A stretch of 64,000 nucleotides of DNA from contig OZ316892.1 of the NCBI GenBank assembly GCA_973895155.1, forward strand, positions 19,665,869 through 19,729,868, written 5' to 3'. Shown here one piece after another: positions 15,033 to 42,500 of the stretch. Source of the stretch: Marsupella aquatica (lineage: Eukaryota; Plantae; Marchantiophyta). A program made the translations under genes and the position numbers. Within the stretch, counting starts at the first letter, position 1, and every line of letters starts with the position of its first letter. The notes under the pieces are model-generated. The model saw only the letters and a program-made list of their open reading frames with translations. It did not search any database and was not told the DNA's origin.

Positions 15033-17549
15033 TCATTAAATAATTTCAACAATAACCTTAAAGCAACCACTCTGTAATCAATTGAGTGGGGTTGGGTGGT
15101 CAGCTCAAGTGGCAAGTAGGTAAGGTCTCAAGTCCAATCCCTGTCCTGATTGTTCTGTTTTGGTATCAATTTTGCTGTAACCATATTATGTGCGTGGAAC
15201 ATAGATTTGCTCCATCGATTGCAAGCATGTTTAATGGGGTTTTTCTCTGCCTATAGGTAGCAATTTTTATTTTTATTTTGGGGGGTGAGGAAGGGGAAGG
15301 AAACTCTGCCCCAGACAACAAGTTGTGTGGCTTGTTCAGGGGCTGTTACTCTTCAATAAAACCCAAGTCACCTAACCAAAAAAGTGATTCATGGAATCTA
15401 TGAACATCACTTAATGATCCGTATGGTGAGTTATTTTGAACCAAGAAATTTGACAGTTTCCCATCCTTGACTTTAGTACTAGGATGTTGCACACTTTCAT
15501 GCTATGGTTTCCCATGTCGCATACTCAGCAAGGAGTGCATGTATGCTGTTCCAGGCTGTTGCACTACTGGGTTTGGAAGACAATAATCATGGAGATTGTC
15601 TTCAATCACACTTGCATGTTCCTTCATTGAGAGTAGTTCCTGCTCACCCATGTCATTTAAACATGGGTGAAATGGCTTATATTGGTGTTTTTGGAAAACA
15701 ATATAGAGATTGTCTCCAGGTCACACAGTTTGGGGTAGAAAATCCTATAGTAAAAATTCTGCTGAGCAGACTTTGGTTAAAATGCCTTACTGTAGTCACG
15801 GTTCACCGAGTTTGGTCTAGTATCCAAAATCTCACTTTAAAGGAACCTCTGCAAGAACATCTTGTACTCAAGAAGAGGGGGTGTGTAAAGCATATCCCTC
15901 TGTTTGTGAAACTTAGAAAACAAACTTACAATACAAGTTTATGGAATATGCTAAGTATTTTTATATGCGTTCCTACATAATTGAAAGTCAAGTTTTTGCG
16001 CAGGGCATACTGATGCCCCTACCTTTTGAAAAACAGTCAATGTAAGTAACCATACGATAGTCTTGCCGTTGAAAAGGCTATTCTAGTCCTCACAAACAAG
16101 AGGAAGTGAATTGACTAGCGAATAATATTAAATAATGCGAAGTCTCCTTTTCAAACAGAGGCGTAGAAACGCCGCCAAAAAGCTCCAAAGGAGGAGTTGT
16201 GATGGGGGTCCCATGGAAGAGGATGGCAAAGTTCGCTCGAAATGCCCGATAAAAAGCATTGTAAGGGTCTTCTGGCAAAACTAACTGATGACAAACGTCG
16301 GCGACGACGACAAACGAAAACGACAGACAGGAAAATCACGAGAGCGGAGACCCGTCTCTTTTGTCTCGATGCCCACTACTCTCCCACGTGACTACGGCAT
16401 ATACCCGTCGCGAATGAAAACCACGGACGCCTACACAGCAAAGCCATCCCGTCAGGTGAGGCCTCCGTAAAATTTCTTTCTCCTGTTCTCCAAGTGAAAT
16501 ACGCCTCGTTAATAATCAGTTACCCCGGTCCCAGAGCCGACCCGGGTAAAAGGTCGCTGTGCAGATCCAGAGGGCCCCATCCTCGCTTGCCAAGTGTCTT
16601 GGCGAGTTCTCGAGCAGTCCTCAACCTTATTGCATGCGTTTGCAGAGCATGACAAGTGGAATTCGCCGAAAAGGCCGCATGGTATGTCGCAAGGCTCCCT
16701 CCTTCTCTGGATCTCTCCCGACCCCAACTCCCAAAGTCACAGACTAGTCAGCATGCATGGTTGATGGATGTCATCCATGCTCCCCAGTGAAATGATGGGT
16801 ACGGATACGCACGGTCCCCTCCAATTGCGGCGAGGTTGCAGGACTGTTACATTCGTACTCATGTCAGGCACTACTGTCAGGCTGATGGTCGCTAGACGTA
16901 CGATGCTGTTCTTTTACAGCACCGGTACGGAAGGTTACAATGACCCAGACCCTTGTGCTTTGGCCCATGGTCAGGAGGAAAAGGAAAACAACGAACCTCC
17001 AGTAATCGCACCGGGAGATTGTGCTGAATTACACCGGGCTAGTGTGTGACGCTACGGTGCATGAAACACCAGACCCGATGTGTAAATAATAACATTGCGC
17101 AACGATGCGACATGGCGAGTGATGGACGAATCCTGGAGAGGGATGGCAAATTACAAGATGCAGAATTATTGTTTATTTTTATTTTTATGGCGTTTTGAGG
17201 CGTCGCTGGAATCGTCGTTTGCGTGCCCGCGTATAGGGATTACCGGGCCACCGGGGTGCTGCGGTCCGAACGAGGGGTCAACGAACCCCGAGAGGGTGAG
17301 GTGTCAAGGCCTTACTTGCGAACGAAGCAGAAAAGGAGTAGCTGAGTTAAAGTAAGGTCAAAGGTCGGTTACTTTTGTTTGGGAGTGATTTCATGAGAAG
17401 AATCTTTGTGAACGTTGTACTGTCGTCCAGTCGACTGTGAAGTTTACTTGACGATTGAGTAAACTTAGTTGCCAGCAGGAAGATGGAAGTCCCGATATTA
17501 ATATTGTCCTGTATTTCTGTCGTTCTGGAAAGACAAGGCGACCTGAGGC

Positions 17550-17575
17550 TACGGTGTTCGAAATGTTGTGGGGAG
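17550..17575 (+). repeat. Left TIR of the giant transposon
   Basis: TACGGTGTTCGAAATGTTGTGGGGAG, preceded by GAGGC. Confidence 0.92.
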
Positions 17576-19503
17576 TTTTTTCCAGAAAAAGAGTCTAAAG
17601 AGAGAAAATATTCAATATTTCACAAGAAAAATACAAATACCCCAACTTATTTTGTAGGATACCCTAAAGTGTAATTTTCACGCATTTGAAGTAATTTGAA
17701 ATAATTTCTCACTCACTTCAGTAATTCAACAAAAACATTTTGAACATTATCATGTGATACATAATATCATTCACACATGAATTATGTTTTTAAAATATTC
17801 TAACAAAATTGATATTTTTTCTCCACTTTTTGAAATTCAAAAACTATTTCATCCTTCATTTTTGTATACAATATTTTGAAACTTTTCAATCCTTGAAATC
17901 ACAAGAATTCTACTCATGAGTGAAAACTCACAAAATATTTCCTACACCGAACAAAAAAAATTCAAAGAGCAAAACATAACATTCAATCAGAGAGTTGGAG
18001 AGTAAAACACATTTATATACCAAATCAATGAAGAAGCAAAAAAAGTTGACCAAAATAAATCATCTTGAAAAGTGTGAATGTTTTTTTTCTCTCCTTACAT
18101 AGTTGTTTTTTCTCTGTAAGGTTCCGTAAAGTGAAAATTTCTCCCCTTATCTACAAGCCAACCAGAAATGTCCAACTGTCCAACTGTACTTTTTGTTGGC
18201 TCGAAGACATGGGGAGAAAATTTGTACTTTACTCAGCCAATACTTTTAAGTTTCAAGGAAAGAAGAGGCCAACCTGAAGGATTAGGTTAGTCATCTGGGA
18301 AGAATGTTGTTACTCCATATCTACAAGTTCCAACCATGGCCAAGTAAGTCTGCATGTTGGTTCAACTCCTCCATTGATAGATTTACTCTTCCCAATGGAT
18401 TTGACTGGTCTATCATTGGGACATGGGCCTTGATCACAACAGACAAGCACCTCCTTCTTGCCTTCTATTTTTATGAAATTTATTAGTCCACTCTAATTGA
18501 GATAGGGAGTATATCATTCTGAGGTGGGTGGGATCCTCAAAGGACAAATCGTGCATCCCTCAATGGCAAAATTAGAGATGTTATGGAGCAACTAGAGGCC
18601 TGGTGTTGAATGCTGAACAAACAATTACCCCCAAATGTTGACATGCTTAAAGTTACTAATTATATAGGTCTACAAGTCCTTTATACCTCTGCATCCTTCA
18701 ATGCTTGTCTTTTGGATTGGAAAATATTGGGCATCCAAGCACAGGATAGTATTGGGCTTAAAAGTGTCTTTCTTGTTGAATCATGATGAAAATGTTTATG
18801 TCTGTGCATCCTGCAATGCTTGTCTTTTGGACAATATTGGCCTTAGAAGTGCCTTTCTTGTTGAATCATGATGAAACTGCAAGTACTCCTCAAGGTTTAA
18901 GAGCTGACAGTTTATTTCTTTGCAAGTTCTACAAAAACACTCTTGTGCCACTACTTTCAATGGAACGTTAATATATTTACTAATGTGTCAAAAGTATTTT
19001 GAACTGCCTCTTTGATAGAAGTTTTGGGATTCAAAATGATCAATTCCATCCAGGCTATGATAGAGACATTATTGTGAAGTTTGAACAGTCCAAAGTCTTT
19101 ACCAACCATTACACAAGATAGATTAATAAATAGCAATTTCTGTCAACTTTGAAATGAACTCTCAATCACATTACTTAAAATCAAAGTACATTGTGTTGCC
19201 TCCAAACTCAAAGATAAGTAATTTTTGCCTTAAATACTAATTCTTGATGATTAGCAAGCTAGATAAAAAATAACTATTGGAGGCTGTCTGGTATCCAACA
19301 ATGTTTTCTTTTGTGATCCTTCCAAGCCATTGCATTTCTATCGTCTCTTGTAGAGTGTATAACCTGAAAATCCTGAAAAAACAACATGAAATATATTCAC
19401 ATTAATGATACTGAGAAAAAACAATACGAGTTTCCACAATACAATAACACATGCAACGGTTGAAAAATTACCTTTGTTGAATCTTATCAGAAGATAATAA
19501 TCC

Positions 19504-22500
19504 TTATAACTTGCCGTAGGCGGTGTTGAAACTAGCCATGACCAACTTGGAGTGCATCACTTCCACATTTGGATATGCAGGAATATCAATTTGTTTAGAA
19601 CAGGTGGATGCAATAGGCAAAGAGCTCGAAGGTCGACTAGGGCTAAAATTCACATGACATATTGTACCTGCATTGTATTTCTCATCTGTAATAAAGAAAA
19701 TTGACCAATTGCTTCTTGAAATAAGTCTTTCAATGCTGGTGGAAAATCTATTGAATATCTGACCCTTGACAAAAACTCTCTATTTGTGATTCCTTGTTGC
19801 GCACTGAAAAATGCTTGCATGGCTTTCACAGAGACGTCTTTAAATGTACTTGTCAACACAAGCTTCTTTTCAGCCTCGTTAATGAAGGGAGATGCCATCA
19901 CAGTCTTCGCCAATGAGAAGAATCCGTCATGAAGTAGTGCACCAACCATGCTGCAAGCTCCAAATAGAGTCTCATATATGATATCTGCATACAATTTTGT
20001 AGTTGCTTTCTGAAATGCTTCAGTTGACCAGTTTGGGTCAAGTGTTACAACCCTGCAATAATATTCAGGCATTATATCCTCCATGCTGTCAATGAGACCC
20101 TCTCTTGATTCTTCTGGAACATTAATCAAAGACTGCATGAAACCATACCTGCAATAAAAAGTCTGATCATTACCTATAAAATTTCTTCTGGAGCATTAAT
20201 CAAAGACTGCATGAAACCATACCTGCAATAAAAAGTCTGATCATTACCTATAAAATTAAGATCACAGTATAAAATGAGAAGACAATAATATCATAGAAAT
20301 AATGTATAACAAAAAAGTGCACGGTTCCCACTAGGTACATTTACATACCATGTTGGTCGAACAGCTCGAAAATCTTCTATATAAATTGATCGTTTTGTTT
20401 TTTCTTATTGCACTTGCATGTAAATATCTTCACGGGAGGGACATTTACCCATGGCATGAGCAATTGTGGCCATTGTGATTGGACGATGAACTTGTTTCTT
20501 TTTCAATATGAGAAGAAACATGAGTTGACCAACAAGTTGAACCTGATGGAATATGACAAGTAAAAACCTAGTTAAAATCAATAACATTAAAAAAATTGAA
20601 GCAATGATATAAACCACTGAAACAGTTTGGAACACTACAATTGAATAATATTTTAAAAACTTTACATTGTTATTTATGACTTACATCTTTCTTGGAGATT
20701 TCTGTAAACTGTTTTTTGGAATTAAGATGATGAAGTCCGCCACATCCCTCTGTGAAAACTGCATGGAATTCCTGCATTGCATAAATATGTTAATTATGAT
20801 TCAAGGTTGAATTGCATGACTAGTCCCCAGACTAGTCTTGAACAAAATTATTGATTCATGATCAAGAAAACTTACTGCACTTCCACTAAATAGAGTCTTC
20901 CAAGCCCCTGTCAACAATCTACTTGTGACACCCCCTGCATCTACAGTTTCAGATTCCTCCAGTGTTACTTCTCCACTATGTGTTGTGTAGATTAACTTTG
21001 CTGCAAAATCTCCAAATATCTCTTGTCTTCTCAAGGCTTCTTGGCACATCTTTCGAATAGCAGTTAACTCATCACCGTCATAAAATTGCACAAACAAAAT
21101 AAAGTTATTTAGATGTATAAACTTAAATGCAAAATGACATTAAATACAACAAGGCTATAGATAAGTATGAACATTTTCAAGACCGGGTTTCTTTTGTTTC
21201 TACATTACCCTGAATTCGAATTTGGGGAACCTGCCTATAGAGTTTCCGAAAGTGAGAAAGTCCAATGTCAGAAATCTGATGGACCCTTAACAAGTATTTT
21301 GTCCTTTCAGTTTCTTTTTTGGCTTCAATGTACATATTTTCACAACTTGTAAGCGTCGGTTCTTCAAGCTGACATTTTCCAATCCATTCAATGTATTCGT
21401 CGCGCAGAGAGATAATGCGGGCTTCTGAAAATTTCCCTTTCCCGTATGATGGAGTAAGCAAATAATCTCTGAAATAATGCTCAACAATCCACAGCATGTT
21501 GTTAAATTCAACAATGAAAACTATTCACTTTAAATTTACAAAATCATAATTTTAATGGAATGCATTCAGCTCACTGCATCTGATGAAAATGAACACTGAA
21601 ATAAACATGTCAACCATTAATTACCTGAAGATTTGTAATGATCTGTCCAAATCTTTTTGAACAAACTCAGGAACAAGATTGGGTATGAGTTTTTGCAATT
21701 GTTCCCACATGTGCCACCTTGGAATGGCTGCTGCCTCAAAATAGTATCCAAAGTCATACTTGGTATACGAACTTAGGCCTTCTAAACCATTTGACACTGG
21801 TGTAACAAAATCTTCCAGCATTGCATCTGATAATCCCAATTTTGCTTCTCTTCGATGTTGAAGGAATTCCAGATCTGCACAAGCAACTGTAGCATCCATT
21901 TTATTGCGTTCCTCTACTAAAACGGCATCAAAATTTTCCCAAAAGATTGCCATGGCTTGATTTGGTGCTTGATCCACAGGCAACTTTATGCCTTTATCCA
22001 ATTTTTGAAGCCGCTCTTGTGCTGCACAATACGCATCTAGCAGGGCTGATGTCTCTGTCTCACTTGTTATAAGATCGTCCTCAAATCGGTCATTCTCGGG
22101 TGTGCCTGTACAATCACAAAATAGTTCTAAAAATATTCAACCATCCACTCAAGCCTACATATTATAAGAATCAATCCAAACCCGAATCAAAATCCTTAAC
22201 TCTAAATCCTGAACCCTAATCAACACACAATTCTGACATTTTCACTTACCTCTTTGTAGTAATCTTGATTGTCTTTCAATAACCTCTTCATTTTCCAATA
22301 TAATGGGACTATGAACAGTCCCTACAAGGCTTACTTCATTCTCATGTCTTGAAGATCCAAAGACTAGGGCTCCTTGTGCAGGTATAGCTTCGTTCAAAAC
22401 ACCTCTGGTTCTTGAAGTTTGAAATGAATGAGCTCGTAAAGGTAAAGTTGGCAGTAATAATGCACCTGTATCATGTTTCACAATTACCCAACACATTAGG

Positions 22501-25118
22501 GTTGGATTGTCAGATTGCTGTCACTCACATAGCCACTCTGTACCCTTTTTAATATATATTATGATTTCATGGCAGCACTGTTAACCTAATAACGCCTTAC
22601 TGTAGACATCTTGAAAAGCCTTACATACTACAGTAAAGCATCTCAAAGCTTGGTATCCAGATTGAGCTTCGGCCATAACTATAACTCAAGACTTAGATAT
22701 ATAGAAACTTTACAAAAGTTGTATGAGGTCAGGCAAGGGAATCCACATGAAGAGACCAGAGCATCTAATGGAGAGCAATAGAGCAATAATTAGCACGCTG
22801 AGAAAAGCAAAATAATGTCTTGACAATTCCTTATACAAAAGTTGACCAAAAGACCGATGACTTAGTATGCCAATGATTTACCATTTAATTACTCTACTCT
22901 CCTAAATGCAGGTGTACATTATGATCAGAACTGTGATGAGTGCGATATGATTTCATTTTACTCAGCAGAACTAAAGAATGTTTTTTGCTTCAAAGCTTTG
23001 GCTGGCTGCACACAAGCCTATGATGCTAGACACTCCATTTGTTCCTCATACTAATCAGCATTGATGGAAAATACCATGGCTGCTATGGCTTGAAGTGTGT
23101 ACTAAGGGTCTTCCTCTTGAGCTAAGAAAACATGTACAAACTTGCTTCAACACGCTTGCAATAAAAAACTCATTGGTCGGTAGTCGATCTTGAAGTGGCC
23201 AAACTTTCAAGATTCCCCAATGCTTTCATCAGTTAATTGTTTTGTTGCACTAAAATGCAAAAGAAGGAAACACCTGAAGCGGGATTGGGACCACAAGTAA
23301 GCTTTGGAGCATCAATCACCCCACAACAAGGCAGACAAACAGAACACCACCAGAAGCGCACAACAAAAACCATGTTGGTCAAAAATTGAGGGGATGCGGT
23401 ACAAAATGCACAACCAAGAAGAGCAATCATTTGCAGCCCATAGCCTCATTCAGAACATGCTTTCATAGATCTTACATATGCATGCTGTGCAATACTAGTT
23501 TCATAGGTACACCTACAAACTAACCCCCACCCATGCTAACATGTAAGAAATTGAATAATTATTAAACTAAAGTGATCTATGGCCAAGGAAACTCAAAGGA
23601 TGCACGTACTTGAGTCACCATGGGGTGAAGACGAGCTGTCATTGGGCTGGGTTTGAAACTCAGAAGTCGAAGGGTTTCCCAATTGAGGTGACGAGCTCGT
23701 TAATGGAGATGACAAATTAGAGGATCTTCTTGACAGATTTTGCGGGGCTTCAAACCAGAACAATGCAATAAGCAATTAGATACCTAATTTGATCAATTAC
23801 ATAGAAGCTACACTGTATAATCCATAAAGCTTCATGGTGTATTTTTCACATCAATGGAGCTAGAAATGATTTACCTGTTACTCAATATTACTTGTGCATC
23901 GATCAAGACAAATGAAGTTGATATCCTTACCTGTCAAAGTTATTGTGGGGTCGTGCAAGTTTTCTGTCTCCTCAATCCCTTCAGACTCAGAAGCTGCAAA
24001 GCTCGAGTTTGAGCTCTCTCTTTGAGTGTTAGAATTCCATGACTGTGAAGGACTTTGCACATGTTCTGTTTCATTTTCAAATGCCCGACGATGCTCTGTC
24101 GTTGGAGAATCTTCTGAATAGACAAAAGTTTCAATTAATATGCAAATCATATCCAAAGACTTGCTGGGAAAGAGCAGAAAAATGTCATAATCTAAGAATC
24201 TAGTAACAATGATGACAAAAATGTTTGCTTGCTTTACCTGAACGTGCAGTCGAGTGACCATGGATATTTCGTCTGGTATCTCGTTTACGTCGACGTGTTC
24301 CTTGTGAAGGCACAATAATTGTTGCACCTGAACAACCAGCCGCCTCAACATGGTAATGTCTTATTTGTTGTGGCGTCATTTGACAAGAGGGGTCTGGAAT
24401 GTATACTACTTTATCAAACCGAGACACGTTTCTCCATTCGGTGTCCCCCGATAGAAAATATGAATCTAGTGTTGCACCACCTAGTTTGTCCAGGTCGTCT
24501 TTGTGTTGCCCAACATTTGTCATTCTCAAAAAGCATCCTGATATGTCAGCGTAACCAGTATTTTGGGCCCATTCTTGAGATGCCACAATTTCCCGAATAT
24601 GCCACTGAGCAGTATTTTCCCGGAATTGACCTCCATCATAGACACCACCCCAAGGCGTTGACCCAGGTAGACTAACATATATTGGAGGCCTGAATTTTTT
24701 CACTCTTCGCATGTAGCAACTCTGATTGCCTGTGTCCACTTGTTGTGCCTCCCAAATTTGTTGAGGACAATATATAGCACGACTCACTGGTTTATCATAA
24801 TTCCTTCGATTGCAAATTATTGGAGGAGGTCTCGCAATCATCTGTCTCCTTCCTCTGTTTGCCCCACCTCCACCTCTGTTCCCTCCACCTCCACGTCTAT
24901 TTGATCCACGTCCAGATTCTCCTTCAGGTTGATAATTGTATTGGTGATACGAGGTTGGGAATGTTGGAAATTCATATAGTGGAAGTGTCACTGGCTCAGT
25001 AGTTTCTCGAGGACCCGATTGTGTACTAGGTTCCTAGTGGGATCATCCTTGAATTTCTGTTGTATCCTTGGACAGGGTTTCTCTGACGAGGATCTCGACT
25101 ATCAGTAGGTTCATCCAT
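19504..25118 (-). pseudogene. Multi-exon HECT-domain E3 ubiquitin ligase (transposon-borne), disrupted
   Basis: The HECT N-lobe motif ETVDAGGVTSRLL lies at ~20910-20950. The C-lobe reads LPIASTCSKQIDIPAY...KLVMASFNTAYGKL* with the catalytic Cys at 19600-19602 and the stop at 19504. Clear GT-AG exon boundaries include a donor after 24238, exon 24113-23931, exon 22106-21624 and an acceptor before 20148. Lesions are an in-frame TAA at 20405-20407, a frameshift at ~19668 and a disrupted 5' end. The start position is approximate. Confidence 0.85.
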
Positions 25119-26066
25119 ATTGCAATTCTGAATGCAACGCAAGATTGAAACCCAAGATCCAAATGGCCAAGAACCTGAGGCTCTGCTCTAGTTCATTACT
25201 ACTTTTGCGAACAGAGTGCAAAGTGTCGAGCTCAAAGGTAGATATCACCGAGTAGTACAAATTATCTTATATTATGAGCAGAAAGTAATAGATGTTGTTA
25301 GAGTACAGCCGCCATTTCAAGAATTTGGTGAACATTAGTATCACATTAACTTCCAGTACATATCATATTTGTTAACAATCATCTCATCATAATGAAGACT
25401 AGCTACCGCAGCTCTTTTTAGTAGCTCTTTTTAGCCCTCGGATACATAATTGCCAAAAGCGGGTTACCGTATTTCTTATTTTCTTTAGAAGACACTGCTA
25501 CGCATGTAAGATGATTGAACTATTGTAAACTATAGTATTGTAGCTAGTAGTACACTCCAAACTATTCAAAGTTAGAGACATGCATGAAAGAAATAAGTAT
25601 TTTAAAATTGTGTCGATTATTAAGGTCCAATTAGAGACATGCAAAATTTATAATTAACAGGAACTTTACATGTCACCAAACAATTATGTTTGTTGGATTT
25701 GACTTGTCAATGGTGAAGAGTGGGCATCGTGACTTATTCCCCAAGTGAAGGTTGGAAAAACTAGTGTGAAGAATATGATTGGTTCATGTGCACGAATGAT
25801 ACATATTTTTTGGTGCCAAATTCCAATAGAAAGTTTGATAGTAAACGTGGCAATAACTATTACAAAAAAATCCCTACCATTGATATCTATTGATGAATGG
25901 TCAGTAATTTGTAACATTGGTTAGTATGCATGAATTTAATTGTAAAAAACAAACATGATGTGGTAGCTTGTGTGAGAGTTATAACGCATGTGGGATTCAT
26001 GCCATTTGCCACTTGCAAAATGACAATTAATGCTTGTGACAAATTGGGTTGAGCCTCTTATGGGAT

Positions 26067-26815
26067 TCAGGGAGACGCTTCAATGATTTGTCATTCAATG
26101 CACCTCGATTCTCCCCCACATCGGGAAATACCTAATGCTCTCTCCCCATTTTTGTGGCCCCGTTCAGTCTTGTGAAGGGCACAGATTCTGGAGGAGAATC
26201 TAATGCTCGATTGTTTTAACTAGGCTATTATAACTGAATGTAGTCGGGTGGCCGAGGGATGGAGGCGCAGGGCTGGCCGTGGCAGGGTCCGTGGCAAGTG
26301 GTGAGTCAGGCAAGGGTGTTGGGGCTCGCCATGGCAGAAAGGAAGGAGGGCGGCGTGTGGGCTGGCCGGGGCCGTCGTGAGTGGTGAGGCAGGCGAGGGC
26401 GATGGGGCTCGCCATGGCAGAAAGGAAGGAGGGCGGCGTGCGGGCTGGCCGTGGCAGGAAGGAGGGAGGTAGCCGGGTGGCCGAGGGAGGGAGGGACTCA
26501 GGCGGCCAAGGGAGAGGGGCAGTTGTGCGGCCAAGGAGGAAGGGCGCAGGGCTGGCCGTGGCAGCAAGGAGGGAGGAAGGTAGTCGCGGCCGAGGGAGGG
26601 AGAGACTCAATCGGGAGTCGGTAGTCCCGTGCATTCAGGGAGACGAGTCCCTGCATTGTCATTCAATGCACCTCGATTCTCCCCCATAGCCCACCTGAAT
26701 ACTCTCTCCATTTTTGTGTCTCACTTTCAAGCCAGCCCCATTTTTGGGTCCCAGTTCAGTTTTGAGGAGGGCACAGATTTTTGATTGAGGAGTTCTAATG
26801 TTTGATGGTTTTAAG
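26067..26815. repeat. GC/CpG-rich island bracketed by ~150-180-bp direct repeats
   Basis: TTCAGGGAGACG...TTGTCATTCAATGCACCTCGATTCTCCCC occurs at 26067 and 26634. The core is built from GGGCTGGCCGTGGCA and GGGGCTCGCCATGGCAGAAAGGAAGGAGGGCGGCGTG repeats. Confidence 0.85.
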
Positions 26816-29800
26816 TTATTCACAAATAATGTAAAACTATAATATTAATTTTAAAAATATCAATATATTTAATAAAAAATATATAATTATTATAAAATAT
26901 TAAATGGTAATGAGCACGGAGAATTGATGCACAGAAGTAGTGTGTGACCTAGTGGTATTGGAGGTCAGTTGAGACTAAGACGTGGCGTGTTAAAGGCACA
27001 CGATGGGCAACTTTTTTTTTCTTTGATTGAGGGCATGGAAAGGAATGAACTTTGGAGGGGGCGAGGGTGTCTCATTGTATTTAAAAATGAAAATGGTAAA
27101 TGAGATATATATGGTTCAAGTAGTTTGGAGATAGCAAAAATAACAAAGGAAACACCCATGAGAGCCAGGGAGATAAATTAACCTCTTTTGTTAATTTCCT
27201 ATACCTGCTCATTGTTGTGAGGTGCCAATCATGTTCCTGGTGGGTAGTTGCTTTCAGTTTTAGGAAGAATCCAACAAAAGAGGTTAGCACAAGAAGCCAA
27301 CAAAAGAGGTTAGAAGTCAAAAGGCAAACAATATTAGAGGTGGTGTTGACAAGAGAAGAAAAGCCTTGTGCAACAAGCTGAGAAACCAGTAAGACAAACG
27401 AAAGCCCCTATGAAAAAGGCACAAAAACCAACCCAGCACAAGGCCCCTATGAAGTCCAAAAGTGTGTGGTAGAGAAGACAACAGGGCCAGGAGTGGTAAG
27501 TGTGCTCCAATTGACAGGTTTTGAAAGTTTGCAAGGAATTGGTGCAAGCATGGGTCTGAATTCTTTGAGTGTCTTGACAAATGTGACAGCACCTTTGGTA
27601 CACTTGTTTCCCAGGGTAGCCAACTTAGACTATTTCCAACCTTGTATGTAGAAAAGATATGTGATTGAGTGATTAATTGTAGGGTGGTAGACTGCCGTTG
27701 GCTTCTAGGTTTTCTATTGATTTGAAAACAAATTTCATGAATAAAGTTTTGCTTCTTATACAATAAGATGTGTGCTTACCATAAATGGTTTTGGAGATAA
27801 ATGGTTTTTTATGTGATCATGTCTCCTCAACTTTTTTGTTGCTGCTATATGGCGCATCCTTGGTTCATATCCCCAAGTCCAATTTGTTTGGACATTATTT
27901 ACAGACCCCCATGGGAAGTTCCTTCCAAAATCCCTAGCACCACGTTGAGCCACATCAGCAGGAATGGCCACAAACAAGAAAATGTAGATGTGAAAGAAGA
28001 ACAAAACCTGATGGTTCGTGTTTGTGACAAGGCAAAAAAAACTGTCAATCCCGGTAACTGTAAAAATGATAAAAAAAACTGAAGAGTAAGTTGAAACAAA
28101 CAAAGAACGAGGTAAAGAGTAATTAACACTTGGAAGTTCTAGAATTGATATATCAGTGTTTGCATTAAATGTTAGATTTTCTCTAATTTTAAAAGATTTT
28201 TAAATAAACACTGCTAGAGGACATAGAAACAAACTGTTGGGCTTCAATTCCAAGATTTTGTAATAAGTATTTGGTGAAGTAACAAATTGTTGGGTTTCCA
28301 AAGTTTTGTAATAAATATTTGATAAAGTAAAAACAAACTGTTGGGTTTCCAAGCACTGGTAACTGCAGTAAGTTGTAGATGGTACGTTTTAGATAGCTTG
28401 AGATGACAAAGGGAATGGCTTGATGACTTGAGAAAACATGACAAAGCTAATGGCTACCCTTATACTCTTAGATCTGGCAATTTGCCCCCTCACCCAAGCC
28501 AGTTTTTGGTGAATTTAGTAGGAATATTAAATCACTCCTGCAAGTTACAAACAAATCCTGCTACTTATATTATTTGGCAATTCCTCCTACTAATAGATGG
28601 ATTGGGACACAGGGCACATCTGGGAAATTGATAAATCCAGGCAAACATGAAGGCAAACATTGATTTTTGATATTGGCAAGGGACTTTGTAGCTGAGGTGA
28701 ACAGTTCTGTTGACAGACATGACATGTCTTATGCACAAAATTCAATGATAAACACCAGTTTGTCTCTAAATATCAATGGTTTATAGTCTGAAAATCAACT
28801 TACACCTGAGCTTCAGAATATCATAACAAAATATCGAGTGAAGTTTTAAAGGAGTCTAGTTGGCCTTGACATTGATGCTACTGTTGAAGTGGCTCCTGAT
28901 ATTGGTGACCCAGGTGAAGAGCCAGCTCAACCCTTGGGGCTGTACAATGTCTTGCAAGGATGAGACACATGGGACAGATTGTAGGAGGTTGAAAAAAATG
29001 TTAGTTTGTAGCTTATGTGAGACAACATCTACTATTCATAGTTGATTAAAGTGAATCAAAGAGATCTTGTTTGCTCAATGTGTTTCAAGAGTACCCCAAA
29101 CTGCAAATGTGAGGAGGAGTTATAAATTTCTGAAGTTTGCTCAATATTTGAGTAGTATATGAAAGGAGTTATAAGTTTCTGAAGTTTTCTCAATGCTTGA
29201 ATGAGTAGTAAGTTTTGTAAATTGTAATCAAATATTTTGCACATTTTTAGCTTTTTTATAAGCAAATTTTAACTATTGTCCATTCTTTGTTTTTAACTTT
29301 AAGTATGTGTGACACTATTTGACTTGTGACCACAATTAGTGTCATACTATATTAGTGTCACACACCCTAATTACCATCACTTACCTCAAATATAACCTCA
29401 CAGTAATTAGAGTCTGTGAGACTACATACTGTAAAGAGTGTAGTTACCCTTGGAAATATTATAATGGATTAACTAGTAAAACATGCAAGCTGGGAAGCAA
29501 TGGGGAACCATTGGCCAAATGACACTAAGAGAAAATATCTCTTTTTGAATTATAAGTGACCTAGCAATACTTCAGTTGTTAGTGGCCTATAGGTGTCATG
29601 CTAATTACAAGAGATTTAATCCCAAGATTTTTATAGATTACATAAAGACATGTTAGTGACTAGTCAAACACTGAATCATGTAAATGTTACTGACTAGTCA
29701 AAAAGTCACTCATGTGACCATGGTAGGTGAGTCCTAAGGAAGTCATATAAATGTAGAAGTAGACTTTAGTTGCAAGACATCAGTATACCTTACACCCATT

Positions 29801-30779: not shown

Positions 30780-31700
30780 ATTTTGATTCTAAGCTTGGTT
30801 TCCCTGAAACTTTGCCAACATAGTCGTGGCTCTTTCTTCCAAAATCTGGCAAAGTTTGAGTGCATTCCATGCAGCAAATGTTGCCCTACAAAATTTGAGT
30901 AACTCGCAGCTTTTTTTAGGTCAAATTTTATCGAGTTCATATCTCTTGATCGTTTTGTTTTTTCAGTTTCGATTCTGAACTCGGTTTTCCCTGAAACTTT
31001 GCCAGCACAGTCGTGACTCTTTCTTCTAAAATCTGGTAAAGTTTGAGTGCATTCTGTGCAGCAAATGTTGCCCTACGAAATTCGAGCAACTCGCAGCTAT
31101 TTTTAGGTCAAATTTTATCGAGTTTGTATCTCTTGATCGTTTTGTTTTTTCAGTTTCAATTCTGAGCTCGGTTTTCCCTGAAACTTTGCCAGCACGGTCG
31201 TGACTCTTTCTTCTAAAATCTGGCAAAGTTTGAGTGCATTCTGTGCAGCAAATGTTGCCCTACGAAATTCGAGCAACTCACAGCTATTTTTAGGTCAAAT
31301 TTTATCGAGTTCGTATCTGTTGATCGTTTTGTTTTTTCAGTTTCAATTCTGAGCTCGGTTTTCCCTGAAACTTTGCCAGCACGGTCGTGACTCTTTCTTC
31401 TAAGATCTGGGAAAGTTTGAGTGCATCCTGTGCAGCAAATGTTGCCCTACGAAATTCGAGCAACTCGCAACTTTTTTTAGGTCAAATTTTGTCGAGTTTG
31501 TATCTCTTGATCGTTTTGTTTTTTTAGTTTCGATTCTGAGCTCGGTTTTCCTTGAAACTTTGCCAGCACAGTCGTGACTCTTTCTTCTAAGATCTGGCAA
31601 AGTTTGAGTGCATTCTGTGCAGCAAATGTTGCCCTACAAAATTTGAGCAACTCGCAGCATTTTTTAGGTGTCATTTTCTGGCAAAGTTTGAGTGCATTTC
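30780..31700. repeat. 187-bp tandem array, ~5 copies
   Basis: GATTCTGAGCTCGGTTTTCCCTGAAACTTTGCCAGCAC...GCAGCAAATGTTGCCCTAC recurs every 187 bp. Near-identical ORF translations at 31026 and 31400 are 374 bp apart. Confidence 0.95.
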
Positions 31701-32278: not shown

Positions 32279-33976
32279 ATGGAAGGACTGAAAGACAAAA
32301 TAAAAAAAAGAAGAAGTGAGACTCCAATTCTAAAGGTAAGATATTTTCTCACTACTAATATACTTTGAGATCATAAAATGTTTGGAATATATTTGAAACC
32401 AGTACACATTTTGTGAGGCCAATTCATTGTCAGGTGAATATATTGATCGTTGACCTACTGGGGGGCGTGACTTCCCGTATAGTGGAAGAAACCTCATTAT
32501 CCGGTGGCCGATACAGTCTATATTCTATGGCTATGTTTTGTGTCCGAAATGTTTAGCATATATTTGATACTCATCGTAGGTTTATATTTGTTATTATTAC
32601 TGCAAATTTAAGATGAAACTCGTTTTTCTTTTATAGGGCAAAAAAACAGTGAAGGTATCTTCCGAGAGGTTCTCTGCAGCATCTCTTTATTTCTGTGAAA
32701 TCATCAAGCTTGCTCAAAAAGCTGGCGGGAAAGCAGGACATTTTCATACAAAAATTCTCTGTAAGTGGTTGTTAGGCGAATACTATCTTTTCGAATATGG
32801 AGTACAGATATTATCCGAGGGAAACCTAAAAGGAAATCAGTCAACCTTTTTTATGGTTTTCACAGTTTAAGAAGAGATGGAAGTTGGATTGCTTGGTTTG
32901 ATGAAAAAGAATGGAGTAGCATCAATCATATGATAATGAATCGTTACAATCTATCATCTGTTGGGAGAGGCTTATCAGATCGGATACAGAAGTTCCGAAC
33001 TGATCCAGACATGTATCTAAGAAGTAAGAAAGATCATTACCAGAAATTTGGAAAATCCCGTATAAAGTTTACAAATTTCACCAAGAAATCTTCCAATTTT
33101 GTTGGTAGATTTTCCTCCAGCTATTTGATTGAGGAAGATTTGGAAACACCTTGGGCAAATCGAATTATAGTCTGGAGACCGATGATCGAGCCTTTCTACA
33201 AGATGAATATTTCATCAAGAGTGGAGATTTGGATGGATGGTGATGAAATCATTGGAGGTCGGATGAAAGGAGGTGTTCCAGAGAAAGATAGATCTTTTGT
33301 TCAGTTGTTTGTGGAAGAAATATGGAATGATAAATATACAGTGAAGAGGTCAGATACACGATCTGCATTGAAAAATGTCATGAGGGCAATTGGCCCATTA
33401 GTGAACTGGCGAGAAGGGAAAGGTAATCATTTTGTGAGCTTCTACCGTAACAAGTTGAAGATATCACAAACACAGGATCCTACTGTGGTTCAATTAGAAT
33501 TGCTCTATGAGCAATGTGCACATCGATTACTGTTTGAAATTATTTTTGTTCTTTTCTGTGAACACTTTTGGCCAGTGGTGGAGAGTTTTATTGAGATTAT
33601 GCCTCCAATGATGGAACTTAGCAGTGAGCTTTTGGCTTGTTTTTCAAAGCCTGAACTCATGAAAAAAGCCATTCCTGCATATCCTTTATTCATCACAAAG
33701 GATTATTGCAATGAAGTTCATACAGATGTAGATGAAAGCGAGTTTACAATGTTCATGGCATGTAATCCATCGAATGAAAGTAGAGGTGGAGATTTAGTGA
33801 TGCTAAAATATGGAATTAAAATTCCAATTTTAGATGGAGATTTGTTTTTTGTTCGGGGTCAAGATCCTCATGCTACATCGTATAGAAGTCCACCAATGAA
33901 ACCAGTATATGTAGTTGGAATTGCCGTAAACCAAAAACTTGGCAATGCTTATGAGTTTCAAGGTGAAAGTAATTAA
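32279..33976 (+). CDS. TET/JBP-like Fe(II)-dependent dioxygenase (double-stranded beta-helix fold), one frameshift
   Basis: Exon 32279-32335 (MEGLKDKIKKRRSETPILK) splices in phase to 32637. A frameshift lies in the T6 run at ~32847-32852. The C-terminal domain reads YCNEVHTDVDE...GGDLVMLKYGIKIPILDGDLFFVRGQDPHAT (HxD...H). Confidence 0.7.
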
Positions 33977-34417
33977 ATAAATTTTGTGATACACTAAGAT
34001 TAGCTATGCGGGTTTTCTTTTGGTCTATTTTTTGTTTATTATTATGGTGGATTTGGTTATAATGGTGTACTATATAATTATATCCTCATGCTAAAGTTTT
34101 TAGTTTATCTTCTTGTTATAGAATTTTTGTTCATTGGTGCTTGTGGCTGTAATATGACTTGTGAGTTTTTAATAGGTTCAAGAAAGCCAATGAAAATTTT
34201 GAAAATGTCATCTGCTTCCAAATTGGGAATCATCAACAATTGTTTATGAACAGGCAGTGTTGGGGCCAAGCTTACAAGAGCAATAGTCCATTGTTGTAGA
34301 AAACAAAAATTGAATGACTACTGTTATTTGTATTTGTATATGGTTGCAGGTGTTAAAATTGTTAGTTGATGAAACTGTGGAGTATAATCTATACTCAACC
34401 CACGCTGGACAATCAAT

Positions 34418-36067
34418 ATGAATGATCCAGATTTTCAACAGTATACAGATGTAAAAAGAGCTCTCGACCTAGGGTACACTATGAATGAATGTGCAGATGC
34501 ACTTGGTGTACATAGAGTGACTCTATGGAAATACCTCAAAAACTTTGATATTGAGCATAGAATATATCCCCGATATACTTTAGAAGATGTTTGCTCTCTT
34601 ATTACTGAGATTGTATCAATCCATGGATATGCTGAAGATTGGGGAATACGTTTCGTTAGAGCACGTTTAAAAAGGGCTGGTTATAAAATCTCACTAGCAC
34701 TTGTCAGAAATGCTTTGGACACATTACTTCCTGGTGTACTTGAAGGAAGGGCACGAAGATGCATCATAAGAAGGTTTTATGATGTAATTGAGCCAATGCA
34801 TCTGTGGCATATGGATTGTAAGTAGAACATCTATGTCTCTTCTAAATTTTTCCTACTTTTAATTTGAAGTTAACTTTAGAATAGATCCTCAATACTAATA
34901 GATTGTTTGGAAATTGAATGCAGCATATGATAAATTGACGCAATGGGGATTCAGAATTCATGGTGCAATTGATGGGGCTACACACTTTGTTCCATGGATG
35001 CATGTGGCATTGAACAAGAAAGCGCAGACTCTATATGTGGGATATAAGACAGCCATACTTAGATTTGGTCATCCATTGATGATTCGTTCTGATTATGCAA
35101 CAGAGCATGTTTTGGTAAGAAGAAACCTTGAAAGAGCAAGACCAAACACAAATTGTTTTCGCACGGGGTCTTCTATTCATAATCAGGTAATGTTTCTGAT
35201 TAAAACATATAGAGTGGTTCATTTCATATTTCATGTCATCAATTGCAGCTTGGAAATTCTGTAAATTTGAAATCAATTTTGTGCAGGTACTTATATTTGT
35301 ATCCTATCATATGTTTTGGCAGAGAATTGAGGCATTTTGGAACTACATGAAACAAAAAGGAACTAATCACTTCAAGAAGACTTTATATGACTTATCATGT
35401 GTGGAAGGATTTTTACAAATTGATATCCCACTTCATAGATATTGTATGGTTACTGTGATTCTTCCTTTACTGCAAGAGGCTGTAAATGATGTGGTTTTAA
35501 CATGGAATGCACATATTGTGAGAGCTGTGCGGACTGGAGGTATGTTGAGACCATCACATATTCCAGAACTTGCATTTCAATCACGAGAAAGAGAAGCTAG
35601 AATTATTCAGCCTCCACCTTATGCCGAAGAAGCTCAGGTGGATATCGAACAAGAAGATGACATCATCGATCCAATGGGAATTGATTATTGGAATCACAAC
35701 AATGATCGTGGAAACTTTGAAGATCGCATAAACGATTTGAATGATGAAGTAAGCATTGTTTTGTATTATTATTAATGTTCATGTGAATTATGAAATGATG
35801 ATATAAGATGCCCTTATTCATGTTTTATTTCTTTTGCAAAATCTACAATACATTCGTGATATTGCATATGAAAGAAACCAAGTGACAGTCACAACTGCAA
35901 AAGACAAATTGCGAATGCATCTTCTTCTTTCTATAGAGTGTCAAAATAGTATGGACGCTTCATTGGACTTGGAGGACTATGTACAAAATGAATTAGGGCT
36001 ACCTAATTTGTCAGATGATAGATTATGGGCCTTAAGATCCTTGCAACAAACATTACAGATTATATGA
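34418..36067 (+). CDS. HTH + integrase-core DDE transposase (IS3/IS481 fold, IS3EU-like), 438 aa if spliced
   Basis: Exons 34418-34817, 34924-35186, 35323-35748 and 35840-36067 are all in phase. HTH is GYTMNECADALGVHRVTLWKYL. The catalytic triad lies in WHMDSYDKL..WGFRIHGAIDG, IRSDYATE and GSSIHNQRIEAFW. The last acceptor reads CAA instead of CAG. Confidence 0.92.
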
Positions 36068-36199
36068 CTGACACAATATGTGAGGTAATATAATAGTTTA
36101 CCAGTGACACAAACACTTCTTCTTGAGGCTTTAGCAATATTCGAAGAAATTATTTTCTAGTCTATTGGCTTAAGAGATACTTGTTCAAGTTTTGAGCCC

Positions 36200-38580
36200 A
36201 TAATTTTGCTCTCATCCTAGTATTTAACCTAGCTTTGGACCCTTGTCTGAAAATGCCAATAATTAAATCCTTGATTTTTTTTCATAAATTTGCATCCAAG
36301 ACTAAGCATGCCTGGTATTTTGATTCCAAATCCACTTTCACATTGTTGGTTTGAAATCTCCTTGGCCAGTTGTAGTGGGGCAAGTTGATTCAAGTCCTTT
36401 GTATTTTGTTATAATGGTCCTCCTATTTACCCTAACTTTGGACCCTAACTAGCTTGTCTCAAAAAAATGCCAAGAACAAATCCTCAATATTTTGTTGTGT
36501 ATTTATAGCATAGACTGAGCCCAATTAACATTGTGATTCAAAATCCACTTACACTTTGAAGGTTAAATCTTTCCTAATGGTGGTGGTGGAGCAAGTTTGT
36601 GATCTACCTTTGTATTTTTTGTCATGGTAGTCCCATTTACCCTACCTTTGGACCCTTGACTTAGACAATGTCAAGAAATAAATCTTCATTAATGTAATGT
36701 GTATTTACACCCTAGACTAAGCCCAGGACCAAGCTTGACCTGGTGATTCCAACTTTGCTCTCACTTTGTGGGTTCCATCTTTCTTTGCTCACTTGTGTGG
36801 TGGAGCTATTTTCTTTATTGTCCTAAGTTGTATTTTTGTTATTTACTCGCAGTGACCCTAGCTTTAGACCCAACCCAGCTTGTCTGAAGAAACCAGATCC
36901 TTATAACTTGTTTATGTTGTACACCCTCCATTTACAATGATTGTTGTCATTGGACAAGCTCTCATTTTGTTGGTTTCACCTTTTTTAAGTCACTTCTGTA
37001 GTGGTGCAAGAGTATTCAAGTCATTTCTATATTTTGCTCCAGGAGAGTTTATTGTCCTTTAGGCCCTTGTATCAAAATGCCAAACGTCAAATCCTCATAA
37101 TTTTGTCACAAGTTCACACCCTGGACTAAGCATGGTATTTTCATTCATAATTTGCCTGTCACATTGCTGGTTTGACATTTTCTTGGTCAGTTGTGTGGTG
37201 GATCAAGTTTGTTCTCATCCTTTGTATTTTGGATATGATCTTCTCATTTACCCTACCTTTAGACCTTGATTGAGAAAAATCCCAAGATACAAATCCCCAT
37301 AATTTTGTTGAGTATTTACACCCTTAGTAGACTGAGCCTGGCTTGGGTCATTCCAAATCCACTCTCACTTTGCTGGTTCAGCATTTTCTTGGCCAGTTAT
37401 GTACCATGACAAGTATACACAGTACCATGACAAGTATACAATAAATGGAGAAATTTACTTGTCATGGTCTTGGCCAGTTATGTACCATGACAAGTATACA
37501 AAGTTAGGGTTAAATGGGAAGACCATGACAAGTAAATTTCTCCATTTATTTACACCTTTGATTGAGTCTGGTTTGGTGATCTCAAACCCACTTTTATTTT
37601 GCTGGTTGCACATTTTCTTGGGCAGTTGTGGGATGGAGCTCGCTTATTTAAGTCCTTGGTATTTGTGTTATGGTTCTCCCATTTACCCTACTTGACTTTG
37701 GGCCTTTGTCATAGAAAAATGCCAAGAAACAAATGCTCATGGTTTTTTTTTTTGCATTTACACCTCATGCTCATAATGTGAATCAAAATCAGTTCTTGAT
37801 TTCATTTTTCCTTAGTTAGCTATGTGAGGGAGCAAGTTTGTTCACGTTCTTTGTATTTTGGTGAATGATGATCCTTCCATTTACCCCACTTAACTTTGGA
37901 GCCTTGTCTAAGAAAAATGCCAAGAAACAAATTCACATGATTTCTTTGTGTATTTACCCCTAAGGCTAAGCCTGATATTGTGATTTGAAATGTGCTCTCA
38001 CTTTATTGGTTTCATTTTTCATAAGTCAGTTGTGTAGGGGAGAAAGTCATTTGTATTTGGTTAATATGAGCTTCCCATTTACCTTAGCTTTGGATCTTTC
38101 TTTCAAAAAAATGTCAAGAAGCAAATTAACATAACTTTTTACACCCTAGATTTAGTGGGCCTTGGTGATTCCAAATTTGTTCCCACTTTGCTGTCAGTTT
38201 GACATTTCTTTGGCCAATTGTGTGGTGGTGCAGGTCAATTCAAGTCCTTTGCATTTTTGTTGTGCTCTTCCCATTTACCCTAGCTGTGGACCATTGTCTT
38301 AATAAAATGCTGAGAAACAAATCGTCATATTTTCTTTGTGTATTTACACCATAGAGCGATACCCAAATGTGTTCAAGTTATTTGTATTTCTAAACAGTGT
38401 TGGTATTTACTCTAGTCTGGACCCCTTTGAAAGAAATTGCCAAATAATAAATGCTGATAGTTTCTTTGTGTATTTTTTAAGAGACACAGCATGACCGACC
38501 TTGTGATCGCAAATTGGTCCTGACTTTGGTGGTTCTACCTTTCCTTGAACTGTTGTTGTTGTGGAGCAAGTATGTTGAAG
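36200..38580. repeat. Degenerate ~200-bp tandem array, ~11-12 copies
   Basis: Recurrent blocks CCATTTACCCTAGCTTTGGACCC, AAAATGCCAAGAAACAAAT, GTGTATTTACACCCTAGACT and TGTGATTCCAAATCCACT at ~200-bp spacing. Confidence 0.85.
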
Positions 38581-39509: not shown

Positions 39510-39535
39510 CTCCCCGCAACATTTCAAACACCGTA
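39510..39535 (-). repeat. Right TIR of the giant transposon
   Basis: CTCCCCGCAACATTTCAAACACCGTA (reverse complement TACGGTGTTTGAAATGTTGCGGGGAG), followed by GAGGC. Confidence 0.92.
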
Positions 39536-42500
39536 GAGGCGGAGCTCCACTTGGAGACGTCCGATGAACATTACATTCTAATTACAACCGTACTGTGACC
39601 ATAGTAAGGTTCATCATATTCACGATGGAGTTAATCTCATTAATTAAGCTTGTTTCCAAAAGTGTGATCCCATTAGCCATGATTTCCATAAGATTGTCTC
39701 CATTAGGTCTCAAGGCAGGAATATGGTTGACAGGTGTGGACTTATGAGACATCTTGATATTCTGGTTGCAGGACTAGTTAAAGAATTTAAAATGGGGGGA
39801 GGTGGCATTGACCCGCTCCATTAGGCAGGAGTTAAGACCTCACCTCATCTCATAGTACATATCATTTTTTTTTTCATTCTTGGTCAGTTGTTATCTCAAA
39901 TGCAGCAGTTCACCACGTCAAACACAAAGCCTACTTGCCTTCGATTGTAGCTTTTTGGATTTTTGGATTCCTGGATTCCATCAAAAGTTGCTGGAAATTT
40001 GGCATGGTTATTGGTTAAGTACTGAGCCCGCAGGCTTTCCTTACTAGTATCCAAAGATCAACTCCCAGATTAACCTTTACAGAAGCTTCCATAACTCTTA
40101 TAAGTTATAAGGATAAGAAGACATCTCCTGGTATGGCAGAGTATTGAGAAGCACTCTTTGCAATAACAAAGAGACACTACTGTGCTTGTGTGACACCAAG
40201 CAAGAAAAACAACTAGATCCAATAACCATAAAAATTGAAAAGGAAAGTTTAAAATAACAAGCAGCAGGGTAAAATTAAAACATTTATTGGGAACACTTAA
40301 ATATAAAACATTTCAAATTTATGCTCAGTCTATGTTAGCTACGTTAATCACCTATAAAATTTTCAGGCCAATTTAATCTGCTGCTGTGGTGTACCTCATT
40401 TCTGTTTGGCTGGCTTTTCTCTTCGACCATGTTGTCGAGCGTTTTATGCCTTTCCTTTGGGTGCTTTGTGGGTTTCCAGCCCTTGTTTTGGTTCCAGGTC
40501 TGCTGGTTCCCCCCCTTGTCCGTGGGGTTTACGCGAGTCTTAATTCAAAATTAAGAAGTTTTAACCAAATAATAATAATAGAACACTGGACTGAAATTAA
40601 TGAGCCACATTAAACTGTCTGGTAACCAAATTTAAGGCATTGCTTATTTTGGTTTCAAAGAAGAATGACATTTTAGGTTTATTTACAAAAGTGGTCAAAC
40701 AAAATACAACAAAGAAAAAGCCAAAGAAATCCAAAGCGGACAATACCAAACTTGAAAGAAGAAGAGGAAGAAAGTATAATCTGAACAATGGCAAAGCTTA
40801 TTACTCAGTTTATGTGTATCTCAGCTGTTCTGCATCTGATTATACAACCACCAGTCTTGGGTTCAAATGTTGTTATGGCCCTCAATGGCTTAAAGGTAGA
40901 TGATGATAGGTACTACATAATAATAATAATAATAATTTTAAACAGACTCTCAGGGTTTTTCCCTCAAGCCAGTTCTGGGGCTTGAAGGTTCCCTTCAATG
41001 GGTTCAGACATCCACCTTGACGGATTGCTTAAGGAGTACCTTGACGCTCCCCCTAAAATCCTTAGAGCATGTTGTCATGTGAGATTTAATTAGCAATTCA
41101 GTTCACATGGCAGTCCTCCACTCCAATCAATTTTGTGATCATTTAAACCCATCATACAAACCATTTTCCAGTTAACTTTCAGGCTGGAAGAAACAAGTAG
41201 TTTGTGGTCACCAAAGGTCCCAAAGAGATCAATGGTACAACCAGCTGCAGTAATGCAAATTACGATGGTTGGATATGGGCACACATACCAGTCAAATATA
41301 GTGGGTATGCCTAGAACATGGATCACAGGAGATGGTAGGGAGAGGAGTCAGGGCTGAATATGAGGTTCAAAGTGGGGATCATCCCTGCTTTTGTTCTCCC
41401 CAATTGTCAACTCTTCCATTTTGACCAGATGGTGGGTGCAGGCCATCAAGCTGCTGAAGATGCTCCTTGTGACTAGATGCCTAAATGCATATTGAACCTG
41501 CTAGCTAGAACCCTGGTTCCTCCCATGGAGTCCGACCCTCACAAGGGTTAATTTTTGCAAGCTCGAAACTCAAAAGTTTACAGCTGGGATTTGCCACACC
41601 AAAGTGCTAGTTCCTAACCAAGAGGCTGGATAAGAGCACAGGCTCCAAGGCACGATGTTACTGAAGTTGACCTGGTATATTTGTTCATTTGTTCTTCCTG
41701 TAAGGCTATAAGGCCAAGCCAAATTGCACGAGGATTAGAGGAAAGAATTTTCAGCAGCCACACATTGTGCCACATAATGAGTTGCAGGAGATAACCTAGA
41801 GTGCTGCACAGAGTTGTTTACACTACAATGTGCTGTGGAGCATAGGGCAGGAAAAGAGTGGCCCTCACCCCTTGTAAAACGCCGTGGCAGCTTGCATGGC
41901 AGACTTCAGGTTCCTGCTGGCTGGAACTTGGGTTCTCACTAATGTGAAATGAGCTAAGTGCCTGGCTAAGTATAACAAACTAAGTGTGCCGGATGAACCT
42001 GGGTTCCCCTAATGTTAAATGAATCCTGGAAATGATGAGCTAAGTGTGATGAACTAAAGGTGTCAGATTATTCTAACATTTAAAAACGAAGTGCTCTTCT
42101 ATACTATTAAAGCTGATGCACTCTATCTTTCAAGGCCTCCACTTTGGGGAAAAGCATGACAAGGGGCCAAGTTGGGCTGTTGTCCTGCATAGCACAACCA
42201 ACCAGGACTTGCATAAGTACATGACCCATGTGAAGGGATCAGGCATAGTCATTGGGCCCGTGACCTATAGTGGGTAAATATATACACTGTACTTGTATAT
42301 TAAGCAAATGTCCTTCCTGCATTGTGAAGTGACGAACTAAGGGTGACAGACTGATTGAGCTTTTAACAATCTAAGTACTCATCTATACTATTAAACTCGA
42401 TGCATTTTATATTTCAAGGCCTTGTCTAGAGTGAAGACTTGATGATGGTCACGAGACAAGTATGCTGACAAAGCAAAAGCAGCTGTCTGGAAGGCAACAC

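Follow-up and report, generated by a model that had tools for sequence, protein, structure and literature searches.

Can a land plant harbour a transposon that brings along the means of loosening its own silencing? This question is raised by a locus of the liverwort Marsupella aquatica, namely positions 19,665,869 to 19,729,868 of contig OZ316892.1 (assembly GCA_973895155.1), a stretch of 64,000 nucleotides that is called the window below. The original prediction saw in it an autonomous, cargo-carrying transposon of about 22 kb, in which an IS3EU-like DDE transposase is accompanied by a TET/JBP-like dioxygenase and a HECT ubiquitin ligase. Taken as a whole, the locus is best explained, with moderate confidence, by a transposon family of the IS3EU/GingerRoot type, whose TET/JBP-like passenger would weaken host silencing and whose HECT ligase would be its partner.

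The ends of the element could clearly be located (Table 1). The two terminal inverted repeats (TIRs) are identical at 24 of 26 bases, and a 19-base pattern taken from them occurred only twice in the window, once at each end of the element, while the mean number of occurrences in the shuffled control was 0.02 and none of the 100 shuffles contained two. Past the 26 bp the likeness of the two ends was reduced to short offset motifs. The TIRs are flanked on both sides by an exact target site duplication (TSD), GAGGC; a 5-bp match of this kind is expected by chance about once in 850 cases. A 6-bp reading of the TSD was also considered and was rejected, since the repeat stops at 5 bp. Between the duplications lie 21,986 bp, which begin with TAC in the left TIR and have the termini TACGG..CCGTA. 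The GC content is 0.365 in the element as compared with 0.413 in the flanks (p 9e-6). The 26-bp TIRs, the GAGGC duplication, the extent of about 22 kb and the gene order (HECT on the minus strand, followed by dioxygenase and transposase on the plus strand) were all found as they had been predicted, and it is practically certain that the window holds a real transposon.

Public sequencing data provided an independent view of the right boundary. Six runs from four studies cover part of the right half of the element and five of them were examined (labelled X1, X3, X4, X5 and X6; X1 and X5 belong to different studies). Contigs of X1 and X5 stop exactly at the outer base of the right TIR. In X1 a 223-bp contig stopping there had a depth of 78.7, as against 18.4 for the contig running into the flank, and the latter showed zero differences from the window across 1,400 bp. 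In X3 the depth of the element-end contigs was 223-282 and that of the flank about 60, and the bins of the dioxygenase and transposase genes were at approx. 4 times the flank depth in both runs. Contig depth is no direct copy number, as the tool itself cautions, but the depth excess together with the contig break at the TIR suggests approximately four close copies with different flanks. The majority contigs of X1 diverge from the window by only 0-1.4%, which dates the movement of the family to the fairly recent past. X1 and X3 also contained a second subfamily, with about 88-90% identity to the element of the window. Thus about four close copies and a diverged subfamily are likely present in the genome. 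The element is not a loose contaminant, because contigs cross the right junction into the host DNA. The breaks at the TIR edge and the fourfold depth bear out the mobile nature of the element, which is probably multi-copy. Beside the junction, X3 carries a second haplotype, from which some 409 bp in the right flank (39567-39975) are missing.

Table 1. Features of the element in window coordinates (aa, amino acids; o/e, observed/expected).
Feature	Position	Strand	Remark
Left TSD, 5 bp GAGGC	17545..17549		Exact match to the right side
Left TIR, 26 bp	17550..17575	+	24/26 match to the right end; pattern at the two ends only
Multi-exon HECT E3 ligase-like gene, 3' part	19504..22520	-	Pfam HECT on the last exon; putative exon structure
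Two open frames upstream (277 and 160 aa)	23881..25119	-	No Pfam family; N-terminal part of the ligase or a fourth gene
GC-rich repeated segment, probably a nested insertion	26050..26800		blastn 77% over 125 bp to window 147-392; tandem units
High-copy genomic repeats	27500..29750		Summed contig depth in X1 250-780 vs ~60-160 in other parts of the element; numerous loose ends
Tandem array of a 187-bp unit, 4.8 copies with 93% match	30781..31669	+	CpG o/e 0.91
Predicted TET/JBP-like dioxygenase, main coding part	32638..33976	+	HxD at 33719, distal His at 33869
Predicted IS3EU/GingerRoot-type DDE transposase, 438 aa	34418..36067	+	Exons 34418-34817, 34924-35186, 35323-35748, 35840-36067
Degenerate subterminal repeats, ~65-75% alike	36215..38355		Including a 32-bp perfect inverted repeat at 37440-37550
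Right TIR	39510..39535	-	24/26 match; contigs of X1 and X5 stop at 39535
Right TSD, 5 bp GAGGC	39536..39540		Exact match to the left side

The predicted transposase was matched by the Pfam family rva_4 above the cut-off on two of its exons (E 2.4e-15 and 4.6e-7), its DDE triad can be assigned to D133, D190 and E224, and a weak helix-turn-helix match was observed at the N-terminus. Its nearest named relatives are ten proteins of another liverwort, Calypogeia fissa, located on seven contigs and showing 55-71% identity exon by exon. Its core and the GingerRoot core shown in PMC6839031 are about 45% identical, by a count made by eye and not computed. The Pfam match, the triad and the TACGG..CCGTA termini agree with the IS3EU-type transposase of the original prediction, and the element very probably belongs to IS3EU/GingerRoot, as judged from its sequence. 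The transposase was not placed by the sequence search of the PDB, the metagenome scan yielded two short contigs with 18 matching residues only, and no locus for it was found in viral contigs.

The second gene of the plus strand would encode the dioxygenase, with tentative short upstream exons from 31786. Its structure was compared as a predicted model (pLDDT 80, pTM 0.83). With this model all 23 listed Foldseek rows, within ranks 1-26, were CcTet, CMD1, TET2 or NgTET1, with E values between 4.7e-9 and 6.1e-6. In VIA-align the order was TET2 (Z 16.1), CMD1 (15.1), NgTET1 (13.4) and CcTet (13.0), AlkB-type structures being behind at 11.7; the TET/JBP matches comprised 213-250 aligned residues with root-mean-square deviations of 4.0-4.7. 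The ESM Atlas led to Tet_JBP clusters at 0.96. In the 50%-identity library 28 relatives were found, and conservation was counted in an alignment of 29 rows, taking covering rows only. Of the rows covering each site, 25 of 26 have the His of the HxD motif and 25 of 26 its Asp, all 20 have the distal His and all 11 the N-terminal Arg. The predicted fold, the HxD...H triad and the N-terminal Arg are common with human TET2, NgTET1, CcTET and the Chlamydomonas CMD1, whereas the protein differs from known TET/JBP enzymes in its low identity (about 8-16%), in an added N-terminal helical region and in a distal Arg that was not found. On the strength of the model comparisons and the conserved iron triad, the dioxygenase almost certainly belongs to the TET/JBP family, as had been supposed.

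An uninterrupted relative, P0001, is 53% identical to the dioxygenase, and the relatives that were looked up carry no informative names. A full-length relative was nearest to Mucoromycota and Basidiomycota clusters of the Atlas (0.94-0.96), which is no proof of transfer. Sequence searches of the PDB gave no placement for the dioxygenase, none of the 39 pattern matches of the metagenome scan was confirmed, and viral contigs gave no locus for it. Proteins P0003-P0034 form a TET/JBP-like family in which HxD...H is kept and the last strand is without Arg; several of them are 420-460 aa long and just 18-27% identical to the dioxygenase of the window.

The neighbourhood of dioxygenase and transposase could be followed outside the window copy. 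One contig of X5 (33704-34653) extends from the HxD codons of the dioxygenase through to exon 1 of the transposase, and in X1 and X3 a contig of approx. 90% identity joins the end of the dioxygenase to the start of the transposase. Since the linkage is seen in the X5 contig as well as in the diverged subfamily, the dioxygenase is a feature of the family and was not captured by one copy; that it is a family-wide passenger is highly probable. Of the cargo-carrying family predicted earlier, the part concerning the dioxygenase is supported by other copies.

The third gene, opposed to the other two, was recognised by its last exon. Pfam HECT matched at 19507-19779 with 31.5 bits (cut-off 23.9, E 1.9e-7) and covers positions 257-299 of 306, and the catalytic Cys motif is kept in this exon; the HECT domain claimed in the original prediction therefore stands. 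The start motif of the N-lobe could be read by eye in the open reading frame (ORF) 20801-21139, while the separate upstream HECT exons gave no Pfam match. When homologs of the middle exon were sought, none of 250 candidates proved to be a relative; this is weak evidence by the tool's own caution, and it gives a weak argument against the recent capture of a conserved host ligase. The ligase is likely a long-standing partner gene, and its presence throughout the family is considered probable. No kinase family was detected by the Pfam scan of 14 ORFs of the element. The 277-aa frame upstream (24203-25033, minus strand) contains an RGG-rich stretch and may be a separate domain or gene.

The pairing of TET with IS3EU has a published fungal precedent. 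TET-carrying (TET+) IS3EU elements are described from seven rust species and from the truffle Tuber indicum (Kojima 2025, PMC12730594). In all of them the TET gene has the transposase on one side and, on the other, an alpha-kinase gene of opposed orientation, and in three families TET and transposase are co-oriented; the rust elements have a 6-bp TSD, TIRs longer than 30 bp and TAYGG..CCRTA ends, with one consensus of about 9.3 kb, and anti-silencing has been proposed for them too, as a hypothesis (PMC12730594). The element of the window has in common with them the IS3EU transposase, the TET gene in the middle, the opposed third gene and the TA..TA ends, its TACGG..CCGTA fitting the rust pattern. 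It differs in its host, a plant and not a fungus, and in its third gene, a HECT ligase in place of the alpha-kinase; the words HECT and ubiquitin are absent from the main text of PMC12730594.

In plants the corresponding elements are known as GingerRoot, which forms one lineage with IS3EU (PMC10045372). GingerRoot was found in Selaginella lepidophylla, mosses and animals (Cerbin et al. 2019, PMC6839031), and descriptions of IS3EU/GingerRoot cover both lycophytes and mosses (PMC6839031, PMC10045372). The window element and GingerRoot have the integrase-like DDE core, the TA..TA ends, a GC-rich TSD and non-seed land-plant hosts in common. GingerRoots have TSDs of 6-8 bp, TIRs of 100-150 bp and lengths of 3.9-12.9 kb, and 22 of 77 carry gene fragments of 84-1654 bp with 79-98% identity to host genes; the available part of their description contains no dioxygenase or ligase cargo (PMC6839031). 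TET/JBP cargo is also carried by the KDZ (Kyakuja, Dileera, Zisupton) and Plavaka transposons, which have unrelated transposases and other TSD lengths, and fungal TET genes pass passively between transposons (PMC12730594).

The novelty claimed in the original prediction was overstated, IS3EU/GingerRoot and the fungal TET+ IS3EU elements being already published. In the literature searched, with Repbase and most subscription papers lying outside the search, no paper was found that deals with the combination of the three genes, with a land-plant transposon carrying TET or with HECT in IS3EU-type elements. What is new is that a transposon of a land plant carries a TET/JBP-like gene, HECT occupying the third gene position. 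Plants are generally said to lack TET enzymes. The surveys of Iyer and Aravind reportedly list a moss TET/JBP gene, so that priority among land plants cannot be claimed for this locus.

A second gene proposed to lift the silencing of its own plant DNA transposon resembles VANC of the VANDAL elements, although these belong to another superfamily; VANC is presumably no oxidase. VANDAL/VANC, from the MuDR elements of Arabidopsis, represents a sequence-specific anti-silencing gene (cited in PMC12730594). For the liverwort family we propose the following course of events. The transposase of intact sister copies would cut and paste the element, and the damaged copy of the window would need this enzyme in trans. 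Both transposase and dioxygenase would be expressed by intact copies, and the CpG-rich 187-bp array may drive the dioxygenase. This array sits just upstream of the candidate start of the dioxygenase at 31786 and is a possible promoter; an 889-bp segment overlapping it ranks second of 142 in CpG, with the reservation that a single unit is repeated and the counts are not independent. The dioxygenase would then oxidise or otherwise modify 5-methylcytosine (5mC) and thereby weaken host silencing, and the loss of methylation would follow via failed maintenance or base excision, as with human TET1 in Arabidopsis. Expression of human TET1 there caused wide CG loss, in transposons less than in genes (PMC5832761); demethylation in plants is attributed to the ROS1/DME glycosylases (PMC12108942). 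The weakest step concerns the ligase, which may tag the transposase or a silencing protein of the host. Anti-silencing through 5mC is somewhat favoured in our analysis. A stronger version, in which the family encodes an active TET/JBP enzyme, possibly derived from fungal TET transposons, and uses it with HECT as a two-part anti-silencing kit, is more tentative and rather doubtful.

Several observations weigh against this model. The first group concerns the state of the window copy, in which all three genes look broken. The dioxygenase frame is interrupted at a run of six T (32847-32852). In the HECT gene the frame is broken near 19695, and 74 bp are duplicated (20109-20257) across a splice acceptor; a 78-bp intron that would rescue the frame was rejected by eye, as the splice phases misfit and the skipped part is HECT-like coding sequence. 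In the transposase the predicted acceptor of intron 3 (35838-35839) is AA and not AG. The attribute autonomous, given to the element in the original prediction, does not fit this copy. Each of the three listed contigs across the six-T region (X3, X5 and X6) shows one gap and has one base more than the window. This suggests that sister copies are intact or that the assembly is in error here, the exact base of the gap not being displayed.

The ends and the insertion site give further points on this side. The TSD of 5 bp and the TIR of 26 bp are at variance with the rust TET+ elements, and together with the length of the element they lie outside the GingerRoot ranges. Since the papers give 6 bp as the usual length, the 5-bp TSD, seen in one copy, may be taken as a variant that does not exclude the element from the superfamily. 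An empty site, which had been named as a check of mobility, was not seen among the listed right-end pieces and the 24 of 113 loose ends listed; a filled site was present in X1 and X4, the samples of which are labelled as two different organisms. In X5 much of the right flank is uncovered at a depth too low to count as absence. An X3 contig starting at 39537 was considered as an empty-site signal and rejected, a nearby haplotype difference explaining it.

The element also shows no sparing from CpG loss and is as CpG-depleted as its flanks: the median o/e was 0.36 in 22 element bins and 0.44 in 41 flank bins (p 0.13), and in most non-coding parts of the element it was 0.04-0.31. As regards the enzyme, the Pfam scan of the window dioxygenase gave no match to any family, and PF20515/PF12851 appeared as weak sub-threshold matches in 4 of 18 scanned homologs. 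An Arg was found in none of the 18 covering rows on the last strand (positions 349-357), where the position of the 2-oxoglutarate-binding Arg was placed by its spacing from the distal His in the sequence and not by structural superposition. TET2 and NgTET1 bind 2-oxoglutarate through two arginines (R1261 and R1896 in TET2), while CMD1 is without one of these contacts and uses vitamin C in another chemistry (PMC7854593). With the canonical distal Arg seemingly missing, simple demethylation should be taken as a hypothesis. A possible substitute is an Arg that follows the distal His at a distance of five residues and is conserved in 14 of 20 rows; the dioxygenase family may also use a co-substrate other than 2-oxoglutarate.

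It is the last point on which the most serious alternative is built. In this case the transposon would be the same, and the dioxygenase would write a new mark, either by a CMD1-like addition to 5mC that uses ascorbate or by oxidation of thymine or N6-methyladenine (6mA), so that no demethylation would be started. The missing distal Arg is in line with it; CMD1, which lacks the contact in question, stands second in the VIA-align list and was counted as tied with TET2. CcTET acts on 6mA, and the divergent fungal types are left open to other chemistry (PMC12730594). The CpG depletion of the element would likewise favour a new mark. The assignment of the Arg by spacing and the possible substitute five residues past the distal His speak on the other side, and neither a glycosyltransferase nor any other partner enzyme was detected within the element. 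We regard this alternative as unlikely.

Still less probable, in our judgement, is that the passengers are of no benefit, the dioxygenase hitchhiking and the HECT gene being picked up by this copy alone or belonging to a nested element. The damage to all three genes and the repeats nested between the HECT gene and the dioxygenase would fit such a history, as would the gene fragments captured by GingerRoots and the passive movement of fungal TET genes. The captured fragments are, however, far from a ligase gene spanning kilobases, and the search with the middle HECT exon provides its weak argument here as well. The dioxygenase, moreover, stays beside the transposase across subfamilies about 10% apart, and its homologs keep the catalytic triad. 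That dioxygenase and ligase are host genes, enclosed by the TIRs and the TSD by accident or as the mark of an old domesticated insertion, is suggested by the filled site common to the two labelled organisms and by the missing empty site, but it is very improbable in view of the fourfold depth of the dioxygenase and transposase bins in X1 and X3, the contig breaks exactly at the TIR and the lower GC content of the element.

Some further features were observed around and inside the transposon. The GC-rich repeat family found inside the element (26050-26800) also occurs outside it (90-392), with a common terminal-looking motif. A CpG-rich stretch at 16021-17800 (o/e 0.94-1.07) is among the highest of the window and resembles the 5' region of a host gene; the transposon is inserted at its edge. 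Upstream, a GC-rich frame of 273 aa (13606-14424) resembles, as judged by eye, the C-terminus of a non-LTR (long terminal repeat) retrotransposon and had no Pfam match, and the nested inverted repeats of short GC-rich units at 4949-5378 are probably a small non-autonomous DNA element. Long inverted repeats with arms of 82-94 bp (84-89%) at 56850-57900 and 61430-61740 resemble miniature inverted-repeat transposable elements (MITEs) or foldback elements, a related copy being present about 4 kb away. The host gene neighbours include a multi-exon Rab5/RabF-type GTPase (47800-49650) and, on the minus strand, an SKP1-like gene (54431-54826) and an F-box-kelch-like gene (63040-63999). The best solved-structure matches of the SKP1-like gene are named SKP1-like protein 1A/1B, which are Arabidopsis names. 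Taken together with the liverwort relatives of the transposase, these neighbours point to a non-seed land plant as the probable host.

The locus thus offers a concrete, plant-integrated and multi-copy TET-like candidate gene, which makes the question asked at the outset directly testable. The TET-carrying strategy of fungal transposons would be extended to plants, and the third-gene slot of IS3EU elements can hold a ligase in place of a kinase. If the stronger version of the model holds, methylcytosine that is oxidised or modified in another way would be produced endogenously, by this family, in a lineage said to have no TET.

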